From the NCBI RefSeq assembly GCF_054482595.1, contig NZ_CM137008.1: a stretch of 64,000 nt of DNA; one strand, written 5' to 3'. Shown here piece after piece: positions 57,701-60,700 of the stretch (the stretch's first letter is position 1; the number at the start of each line of letters is the position of its first letter). A program made the position numbers.

Positions 57701-60700
57701 CCTGAAGCAAACAAAGAAAAGAGTGACATTACTGAATTGCTCAGAAAACAGATCAGACCAGATTGAAGCAATTTAGATAATCGTGCAGACTACGCCCCTC
57801 ATATCACATGGAAGGTACTACAATGGCTCAGGTTGCCATTTTTAAACAAATATTCGATAAAGTGCGAAATAATTTAAACTATCACTGGTTTTATTCTGAA
57901 CTAAAACGTCACAATGTCTCACATTACATTTACTATTTAGCTACAGAGAATATTCATCTTGTTCTTGAAAACGATAATACGGTTTTAATAAAAGGACAGG
58001 GTAAGGTTGTAAATGTAAGATTTTCAAAAAATAAATGCCTTATAGAAGCCACCTTAAAAGGATTCAAATCAGGAGAGTTATCATTTTACGAATACAGGAA
58101 AAATCTTGCTACAGCAGGGGTTTTCAGATGGATTACAAATATCCACGAAAACAAAAGGTATTACTATACCTTTGATAATTCATTACTCTTTACTGAGAAC
58201 ATTCAGAACACTACACAAATATTTCCGCACTAAATCATAACGTCCGGTTTCTTCCGTGCCAGAACCGGACTCGCTGGCATGATGAAATATGTGTACCCGG
58301 TAACCCCGGTGTGCATCGTTTTTGATTATTCCCGCACACTCGCGCAGAAGGAGTTCCCCGTCGGGCTACGGTCTCTGTTAATACGGGAATACGGCGACGA
58401 TACAGCGCATGATGTGTCAGGCTTGAATACCTTTATCCTTTAAAAGGGATATCAGTTAAGTTATCCCGTGTAGGGTATAAACCATTATCAAAGCCACTCT
58501 GTAGGAAGTGGCTTTTGTAATGGCAATAAAAAGCCCCGCGAATGCGAGGCTAAATCCTGGTATTTGTAATGACTGGCTCTTATCTCAACGCAGCCCCTTA
58601 CCGCGCGCAAAATGCTCAATATCAAGCATCAGCAATGAGATGTTTAATCTGGATTCACTCCAGAAGTGAGCACCACCCTGTCTACAGAGCCAGATGTGAA
58701 GGATGATGAGTAAAATTATCGCTATCATCGAAGGCATTGCGTCCTGATGTATTCCTGAAGCGTTCTCAGTGCTGTTTGGTCGCGGATAATTCCGTCCCGG
58801 ATACCGAGAACGTTTCGTCCAGCAACTGGAGAGAGTTCGACGGTGGCATCATTGCCCATGCCGGAGGCGCTGGAGGTTTCAGCTGAGGATGGCACAGGGC
58901 ATTTTCCTTTGACGAGCACCCGACCACCATTATCAAGCTTGCGCCGAAGAGCATCATTTTCAGCTTTCGCATCAGCTAACTCCTTCGTGTATTTATCATC
59001 GAGTGCATCAGCATCACGCTGGCGCTGCTGCATGTGAGTAATGGTGGCGTTCGCCTTCTCCAGTTCACTGGCCTTGTTATCGCGCTGTTCTTTGTAGGCG
59101 ATTGCATTATCACGGTAATGATTAACAGCCCATGACAGGCAGACGATGATGCAGATAACCAGAGCGGAGATAATCGCGGTTACCCTGCTCATTGTTGCCC
59201 CCACAAACAGACCTCACGCTCAATCTCACGACGAGTCATCAGGCCTTTCCATTGCTTACCGCCAGCGTATGCCCAGCGACGTAGCTGGTCACATGCGCCC
59301 TTGATATCGCCCTGGTTTATTTTGCGAAGAAGAGTAGATGTTCTGAAATTGCCTGCGCCCACGTTATAGACGAACGAGTAAAGAGCGCCGCGCGTTGTTT
59401 CCGGTATATCGACTTTGATGTACGGGTTAATTTGTCTGGCTACCGTGGCAAGGTCTTTATTCAGGAGGGCTTTGCATTCTGCTTCGGTATACGTTTTACC
59501 GGGAATGATGTCTTTTCCTGTATGCCCGTGACATACAGTCCATACGCCAACGATATCTTTGTATGGTATGTAGCTGACACCTTCCAGACCATCGTTACCA
59601 CTTGGCCCAGTGATTAACACAGATGCTATAGCAATAGCCCCGCCACTTATCGCCGCTATTACGCTATTTCGTAGTGCCGGTGACATTGCCATTCAATCTG
59701 TCCTCGCGCTCTTTGCGCTTGTAGTACCAGTTGATGCCAAATGTGCCGACAGTACAAAGAATACCAATGATGACAGCCCAGTCATTCAGGGAGAGAATGC
59801 CACCCATCGCAGTCAGTCCTCCGAAGCTGTAACTGAACCATTCTCTGATTTTGTCCATACGGTACATGCTCTACCCCTTCATTGAGGGGATTTGCTCTAT
59901 TTAATTAGGAATAAGGTCGATTACTGATAGAACAAATCCAGGCTACTGTATTTAGTAATCAGATTTGTTCGTGACCGATATGCACGGGCAAAACGGCAGG
60001 AGGTTGTTAGCGCAGCCTCTTGCCACCCGCTTTCACGAAGGTCATATGTAGAAGGCCGCAGCATAACTATCACTGATGAGTTCAGGATAACCAGTGGCTA
60101 CGGCTCAGTTTGGGTTGTGCTGTTGCTGGGCGGCGATGACGCCTGTACGCATTTGGTGATCCGGTTCTGCTTCCGGCATTCGCTTAATTCAGCACAAAAG
60201 GAAGAGCGCTAGTCTACCTCTATCGATTAACGGGCTTGTGGGGCAGTATCGCCGATTCACCTAACGCTCTTCCCTTTGTGATTGTAACGCAAAAAGCCCC
60301 GAGCTATTAACTCAGGGCTTTATTTAACGAGTGCATTTATCCATCGTTGAGTCAAATTTACCCAATTTTATTCAATAAGTCAATATCATGCCGTTAATAT
60401 GTTGCCATCCGTGGCAATCATGCTGCTAACGTGTGACCGCATTCAAAATATTATCTGCGATTGACTCTTCTTTGTGGCATTGCACCACCAGAGCGTCATA
60501 CAGCGGCTTAACAGTGCGTGACCAGGTGGGTTGGGTAAGGTTTGGGATTAGCATCGTCACAGCGCGATATGCTGCGCTTGCTGGCATCCTTGAATAGCCG
60601 ACGCCTTTGCATCTTCCGCACTCTTTCTCGACAACTCTCCCCCACTGCTCTGTTTTGGCTATATCAACCGCACGACCTGTACCGTGGCAATCTCTGCATC

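Follow-up and report, generated by a model that had tools for sequence, protein, structure and literature searches.

A lambda-type late promoter followed by a short leader and by a hairpin shared among diverse phages

The window, the 64,000-nucleotide stretch of contig NZ_CM137008.1 (assembly GCF_054482595.1) that was analysed, carries on its minus strand a lambda-type Q gene, a late promoter with its leader, and a lysis cassette. The features are listed below in the direction of transcription, each with the evidence for it in brackets.

60426..61049, minus strand: gene for a Q antiterminator of lambda type, 207 aa (Pfam PF03589, E 1e-57)
60355..60383, minus strand: late promoter pR' (promoter scan, 9/12 match, 17-bp spacer)
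60383-60378, minus strand: -35 hexamer TTGACT (promoter scan)
60377-60361, minus strand: spacer with the Q-binding element (identity to lambda)
60360-60355, minus strand: -10 hexamer TAAATT (promoter scan)
60343..60355, minus strand: qut elements around the start (sequence equal to that of lambda)
60355-60350 and 60348-60343, minus strand: -35-like TTGACT and -10-like AACGAT (+1 to +6), the presumed pause inducer (equal to lambda)
60326..60348, minus strand: 5' stem-loop of the leader, +1 to +23 (folding and comparison with lambda)
60291..60321, minus strand: predicted intrinsic terminator, equivalent of tR' (folding; same sequence annotated in Emek)
60193..60280, minus strand: 88-nt hairpin of the "CACAAC-frame" family (folding, covariance model R1)
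59868..60192, minus strand: rest of the late leader, lambda-like, up to the lysis cassette (93.9% identity over 325 nt)
58725..59867, minus strand: lysis cassette, not that of lambda (ORFs; RefSeq annotation of the identical EC5502 region)
59867-59664, minus strand: holin, 67 aa, HP1/P21-type (Pfam PF16080, E 4e-21)
59692-59189, minus strand: endolysin with an N-terminal hydrophobic, signal-anchor-like stretch (ORF list)
59204-58725, minus strand: Rz-like spanin ORF (ORF list)

The Q, holin, endolysin and spanin ORFs around the short leader are all intact. From -45 to +8, the late promoter is the lambda pR' without a single mismatch. The A at 60348 is taken as +1 by homology to lambda, and the bases +1 to +8, AACGATGG, are the same in both. 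An initial annotation of this DNA had placed the end of the lambda match at about +9, which is where the first difference is found. The end of the Q gene is separated from the -35 hexamer by 42 bp; its product is identical to lambda Q at 206 of 207 residues and to HK97 Q at 205 of 207, and 615 of 624 nucleotides of the gene are those of lambda. The arrangement is that of a lambda-type Q/qut switch, in which a PF03589 Q gene stands immediately upstream of the late promoter, the sigma70 promoter includes a Q-binding element, a -35-like TTGACT and AACGAT at +1 to +6, and the leader contains a predicted intrinsic terminator ahead of the lysis cassette. The records of HK630 and mEp213 label the same promoter sequence "similar to lambda Qut site". 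The roles of the Q-binding element, the -35-like TTGACT and the AACGAT pause inducer in qut are presumed here from lambda work, in which we take the TTGACT/AACGAT pair to engage sigma70 at the +16/+17 pause.

The departure from lambda starts with a G to A change at +9. Positions +9 to +24 can still be aligned to the lambda leader, with 11 of 16 bases identical and five differences (+9, +11, +15, +17, and +24). The pause-site bases are C16-A17 in the window versus C16-G17 in lambda, and the pause position could shift slightly because the base after the lambda pause site is A rather than G. The 5' stem-loop folds in both versions of the leader. Beyond +24, about 135 nt of the lambda leader are missing from the window and a different terminator follows, so that the leader is not collinear with lambda 44587-44780 and is not the lambda 6S RNA; the lack of collinearity on which the initial annotation depended is thereby borne out. 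The terminator, AAAGCCCUGAGUU-AAU-AGCUCGGGGCUUU, spans +28 to +56 (window 60321-60293) and is predicted to form a 13-bp stem with a 3-nt loop (-19.1 kcal/mol), and its T run (U5) occupies +54 to +58 (60295-60291). A strong terminator 55-60 nt from the start had been anticipated, and this hairpin with its U5 ends at +58.

With +1 at 44587, the T6 run of lambda tR' falls at +188 to +193, a position that reproduces the known 194-nt 6S RNA. By the same T-run rule, the RNA made here would be about 58 nt long, and a short 6S-like RNA, as originally suggested, is the expected product in a lysogen. Both the start site and the termination point are predictions from homology and folding. A simple terminator scan did not list the leader hairpin; this is probably because the basal A-U pairs of the stem absorb three of the Ts, which would make the omission a consequence of the rule for the start of the T run and not of a weak hairpin. 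The Rfam isrJ model (RF01393) has a gathering threshold of 37 bits and gives the window 19 bits and HK97 28 bits, both below it. Lambda-like sequence returns at ~60196, giving a divergent stretch of ~145 nt where ~150 bp had been estimated. The final ~30 nt of the leader and the start codon region agree with Emek and not with lambda.

The short leader is already known from P22, HK97 and HK022, as sequence comparison indicates. A search with the divergent segment retrieved about 90 phage records at 91-97% identity, and carriers of the short leader include HK97, HK022, mEp235, mEp213, mEp043, HK140, HK542, HK544, and P22. Over 68 nt, the identity is 94-97% to HK97, HK022, mEp235 and Emek and 91% to P22; the stretch from +9 to +62, including the terminator, is of the HK97/HK022/P22 type. 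In an alignment of six sequences, the window, HK97, HK022, P22 and Emek are near-identical from +1 to about +65 and lambda alone is long. The Emek record annotates this sequence as a qut site and a rho-independent terminator. By these similarities, the recurrence of the short leader is homology and not a chance match. According to PMC7547250, the late promoters of 21, phi80, 82 and P22 give rise to short terminated RNAs; for that of P22 it cites Roberts et al. 1976.

Among complete E. coli genomes, the promoter with the short leader is present in at least 326 of 5426 (~6%; 327 E. coli records) and the lambda long leader in at least 408 of the 5426, both counts being lower bounds since megablast requires a 28-base exact seed. 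The exact 571-bp interval from Q to the holin is found in three records, namely the EC5502 chromosome, 4FM, and plasmid pSM107_MCR, and 36 genomes contain at least 80% of it.

The Q-binding element exists in two variants, TTATTGAATAAAATTGGG and TTTTTGAATAAAGTTGGG, and each occurs with both leader lengths. The lambda element is joined to a short leader in the window, the variant element to a short leader in HK97 and P22 and to a long leader in mEp506, while IME10 is a hybrid. These combinations suggest that the parts recombine freely, with no co-variation of leader and Q-binding element. We conclude that the locus is very probably the late-gene switch of a lambdoid prophage, recombined from known modules and predicted to yield a terminated leader RNA of ~58 nt. 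The promoter, the Q-loading site and Q would be those of lambda, and the leader with its terminator would be of the HK97/HK022/P22 short type. RNA polymerase would initiate constitutively at pR' (+1 at 60348) and, without Q, would halt at the hairpin-U5 terminator and release the ~58-nt RNA. When made, Q would bind its element in the -35/-10 spacer and join the polymerase that sigma70, through contact with AACGAT, holds near +16. Once modified by Q, the polymerase would read past the terminator and go on to transcribe the genes of the holin, endolysin, spanin and virion. The sequence identities, the computed fold and the distribution are results of this analysis; we infer the start site, the pausing, the loading of Q and the readthrough by analogy, from work on lambda.

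The short leader might instead alter how Q engages polymerase, through another pause or loading window that has co-adapted to the terminator, which lies only ~40 nt downstream of the pause, and the initial annotation had likewise expected a Q-modification geometry different from that of lambda. The five changes at +9 to +24, one of which turns the base after the lambda pause site from G17 to A, are in keeping with such a proposal, as is a terminator stem that starts at +28, only ~11 nt beyond +17. However, the Q-binding element, the TTGACT element and AACGAT are unchanged and Q differs from that of lambda at a single residue, while either variant of the Q-binding element pairs with either leader length and shows no sign of co-adaptation. 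Moreover, P22 has the short leader, and the Q-type proteins of P22 and lambda are interchangeable (PMC8022706). We regard altered engagement as unlikely; a geometry other than that of lambda is not supported by these comparisons, in which the remaining differences are the terminator distance and the five bases.

It is also rather doubtful, although conceivable by analogy with StxS from the Stx-phage pR', for which such action is shown, that the ~58-nt RNA acts in trans as a small RNA in the lysogen. Its predicted layout of a 5' stem-loop, a single-stranded AAAUAAA and a terminator hairpin with a U tail would suit this role, the promoter should be constitutive, and the module is kept at 91-97% in many phages; the authors of the StxS work propose the same for the lambda 6S RNA (PMC7547250). 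Yet the conservation is explained equally by the terminator and qut functions, and the isrJ match stays below the cut-off (19 bits here and 28 in HK97, against 37). It is hardly credible that the locus is what remains of a defective prophage in decay, with a short leader that is a recent functionless deletion of the lambda leader. Removal of ~135 nt from the lambda sequence would formally give the short form, but its terminator hairpin is different from lambda tR' and stronger, and is no deletion product; the same leader is carried by the viable, plaque-forming phages HK97, HK022 and P22, and the adjoining genes are intact.

The match to the HK97/P22 type stops ~68 nt into the divergent segment, and the remainder is taken up by the 88-nt hairpin, which starts 10 nt past the T run of the terminator. 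The hairpin has a minimum free energy of -37.9 kcal/mol, and its closing stem of 16 pairs, CACAAAGGGAAGAGCG / CGCUCUUCCUUUUGUG, is extended by four more pairs and encloses a structured interior. Compared with shuffles, 96 nt of sequence containing the hairpin give a z of -3.9. Model R1 recognizes a single copy in the window, its minus strand scoring 48.4 bits (E 5e-10) and its plus strand 33.8 bits; the window sequence was part of the seed alignment. Relative to the consensus, the frame in the window shows the pairing-preserving changes C-G to A-U and A-U to G-C and has one stem position fewer. The counterpart in lambda occupies 44787-44862, 7 nt past the end of the 6S RNA and just after tR'; its stem is CACAACAGGUAAGAGCAUUG / CAGUGCUCUUUCCGUUGUG, and its interior is shorter and unrelated. 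The hairpin in the window is thus a variant of a lambda element rather than a foreign replacement. Of the replaced segment in the initial annotation, the leader and its terminator stand, whereas the notion of a single replacement does not, as there are two modules and lambda has its own version of the second. About 86 E. coli plasmids, 95-128 kb in size, contain in their tRNA arrays unannotated sequence that matches the interior of the window hairpin at 85-86% identity. A tRNA or degenerate tRNA identity was rejected, since ARAGORN found none in 58000-62000 and no Rfam tRNA model matched.

The hairpin belongs to a family that is defined by a near-invariant 19-bp framing stem, CACAACAGGUAAGAGCAUUG...CAGUGCUCUUUCCGUUGUG, around a hypervariable interior of 30-56 nt. 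A pattern scan of viral contigs gave at least 120 stretches and at least 89 distinct sequences; essentially the same stems enclose at least 45 interiors that are unrelated to one another. In an alignment of 48 sequences, the 19-pair stem is 94.7% paired, a value that drops to 35-64% if one strand is shifted against the other. Both partners are changed in seven of the pairs, and 0 of 500 shuffles reach the observed values, the variation being confined to free positions because the fetch pattern fixed 20 stem bases. Irregularities of the stem are also kept in this alignment, namely a bulged A, a U-U mismatch (36/48), and a U-G wobble (39/48). We also note that the U-G wobble would read C-A on the opposite strand. 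At every copy scored, the covariance model prefers sense over antisense by 2-30 bits, mostly 10-30, a strand bias that points to structure in RNA, or at least in that strand. The 3' flank of the frame, NUGAAU, is conserved. A T-arm-like GGUUCGAAUCC is present in some of the interiors.

In lambdoid contigs, Q genes of two unrelated families (PF03589 and PF06530) precede the element, and holins follow it. It is also found inside the tRNA arrays of P1 and of SSU5-like and Klebsiella phage-plasmids, in each case on the strand of the tRNAs. In pCP53-113k, it lies directly 3' of tRNA-Thr, the order in the array being Asn, Tyr, Thr, the element, a second diverged copy, and Ser; the P1 copy follows trnT beneath the opposite-strand ORF plp, and other copies are present in the Klebsiella phage-plasmid pJN2-26 and the 9NA-like phage PJ16. 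Among the matches listed, 38 of 126 elements have a tRNA gene within 500 nt, which is on the same strand in all 38, and 23 of the 126 are within 20 nt of a tRNA. A miniature inverted-repeat transposable element was considered and rejected, as a target-site duplication is lacking: none of 104 distinct flank pairs among the matches listed shares four or more bases.

An Rfam 15 scan of the window and of the lambda, HK97, P22, IME10, P1, PJ16, pJN2-26 and pCP53 loci assigned no family; the sub-threshold matches to isrJ, DUF3800-VIII and STnc560 were rejected as driven by generic terminator hairpins. In the literature searched, neither the frame or stem sequence nor a description of the family was found, and the published comparison of Stx pR' regions mentions neither the hairpins nor the tRNAs. 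The CACAAC-frame hairpin thus appears to be a widespread phage RNA family without a description in Rfam or in the papers searched. No copy was found in the K-12 prophages DLP12 and Qin, which makes the published K-12 RNase III maps uninformative for this hairpin.

A duplex of ~20 bp in a polycistronic phage transcript is a classic RNase III substrate. As the foremost of several ideas, we tentatively propose that the frame of this undescribed family might serve as a processing handle, RNase III being the likeliest enzyme, by which the late or tRNA precursor would be cut and an interior small RNA released. Daniels et al. 1988, cited in PMC7547250, are reported to have found in vivo sites of RNase III processing within the late leader of lambda, and the hairpin may explain this earlier finding. 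Alternative readings of the frame are a decoy resembling a tRNA or Y RNA, a protein-binding site, and an attC-like site for single-strand recombination. Across siphoviruses, podoviruses, P1-like and SSU5-like elements, the stem is near-fixed while the interior changes freely, which suggests that some factor of host or phage recognizes the stem.

The locus shows once more that the late-control regions of lambdoid phages are mosaics, and the 194-nt 6S leader of lambda is one of two common forms under the same Q protein. Judged from the sequence, lysogens of the short form (~6% of complete E. coli genomes) should make the ~58-nt RNA constantly. The short-leader finding is itself ordinary, and the adjoining hairpin family may be the more useful one.

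Compared with the pR'-qut-6S-tR' switch of lambda, the window has the same promoter, Q-binding element, sigma70 pause-inducing elements and bases +1 to +8, together with a Q that is 206/207 identical, and its logic would be the same: transcription starts constitutively, the leader is terminated, and readthrough depends on Q. It differs in the length of the leader (194 nt in lambda versus ~58 nt here), in five bases at +9 to +24, and in the terminator, lambda tR' being a different hairpin and that of the window the stronger of the two; the orf-64 reading frame within the lambda leader is missing. The late leaders of HK97, HK022, P22 and Emek are near-identical over +1 to +65 and share the terminator as well as its distance from the start. 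In contrast to the window, which is identical to lambda at these places, they have a Q-binding element with two substitutions (TTTTTGAATAAAGTTGGG) and one or two changes just upstream of +1. After the terminator they have a different hairpin of ~100 nt, where the window has the CACAAC-frame hairpin instead. In P22, this long hairpin coincides with P22E, a 101-nt RNA detected during P22 infection (PMC13397905), which was mapped here to +78 to +178. StxS of Stx phages and IsrK of Gifsy-1, short RNAs that end downstream of phage promoters controlled by antitermination, have a like origin and place (PMC7547250; PMC4825925); they have no sequence relationship to the predicted RNA of the window.

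The hairpin family shares features with several known long-stem systems. Some of the interiors, with their T-arm-like GGUUCGAAUCC, recall the tRNA-like Y RNA YrlA, although there is no Rfam match to YrlA. Like the core sites of integron attC, the outer stem has the form ...AAC/GUU..., but an integrase gene is not among the annotations of the contexts examined. As in the long stems of the rRNA operon and of the 23S intervening sequences, which RNase III cuts to free an enclosed RNA, a stem of ~20 bp surrounds a variable interior. As in the known long-stem systems, the family occurs in polycistronic transcripts and beside tRNAs. In contrast to RNase III sites and attC in general, the stem sequence of the family is nearly invariant across unrelated phages.

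A hairpin family with the CACAAC frame was observed both in the late leaders of lambdoid phages and within tRNA arrays, the latter in P1 as well as in SSU5-like and Klebsiella phage-plasmids. Its 19-bp stem is nearly invariant and covaries, while the interiors enclosed by it are unrelated and fall into at least 45 types. The hairpin element is always located on the tRNA strand among the matches listed. The family has no match in Rfam 15, and no description of it was found in the literature searched. Copies discussed here are as follows.

Copies of the hairpin family
60193-60280, minus strand: window copy
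44787-44862: copy in lambda (NC_001416)
3001-3089 and 3141-3219: copies in the E. coli plasmid tRNA-array locus (L006)
193-273, 632-718 and 1134-1212: copies in the phage P1 trnT/plp locus (L011)

A further segment, GTCGGAGTTCAGCACCGACC, is present in both the IME10 late leader (L008 820-860) and the plasmid tRNA array (L006 3285-3310), and in mEp506 and Kapi1 the position of the lambda hairpin is occupied by tRNA-Asn and tRNA-Thr. Therefore, one module pool seems to feed both the late leaders of lambdoid phages and the tRNA arrays of phage-plasmids. In P1, the minus-strand ORF plp (“putative lipoprotein”, L011 601-978) overlaps trnT, and two or three hairpin elements lie antisense to it; plp may be a spurious call.

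Further features of the window
60291-60321, plus-strand reading: terminator hairpin
58725-59867, minus strand: non-lambda lysis cassette behind the lambda-like leader
58462-58653, minus strand: sub-threshold STnc560 match (Rfam, 20.5 bits against a cut-off of 55)

The terminator is symmetric, with an A-rich run upstream and a T-rich run downstream. Because TTTATTT follows the hairpin in the plus-strand reading, the terminator might act in both directions and also stop transcription running from the lysis side towards Q. The lysis cassette combines a 67-aa holin of the HP1/P21 type with an endolysin that has a hydrophobic stretch at its N-terminus and with an Rz-like ORF. Leader and cassette join in the final ~30 nt ahead of the start codon, and this junction matches phage Emek. 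The STnc560 match region is situated 3' of the Rz-like ORF, contains the terminator-like hairpin GCCUCGCAUUCGCGGGGCUUUUU, and probably represents nothing more than the lysis-cassette terminator. An identical nin-Q-leader-lysis segment of the window prophage is found in the 111-kb plasmid pSM107_MCR (L136 2501-3071), whose name refers to mcr; a whole or partial lambdoid prophage thus seems to be carried by what is apparently a resistance plasmid. L135Q (codon 135, window 60645-60647) is the sole change relative to lambda Q, and residue 135 of HK97 Q is leucine, as in lambda.

The P22 small RNA P22E (PMC13397905) maps to the long hairpin directly 3' of the P22 late terminator (L003 875-975, P22 +78 to +178), and its 5' end pairs with its 3' end. 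As mapped on the P22 late region, the 3' end is located 180 nt upstream of gene 13, in contrast to the published distance of 48 nt (PMC13397905). On the 3' side of many family copies, GUGAAU is followed by a second small hairpin (L006 3220-3245, L008 659-690 and viral loci), in which the GGCUGA loop is conserved and the stem covaries (GCGCA/UGCGC, ACGCA/UGCGU and GCACA/UGUGC). This is in contrast to the window and lambda, where a different hairpin, CCGGAAGCAGAACCGG, is present 3' of the family element.
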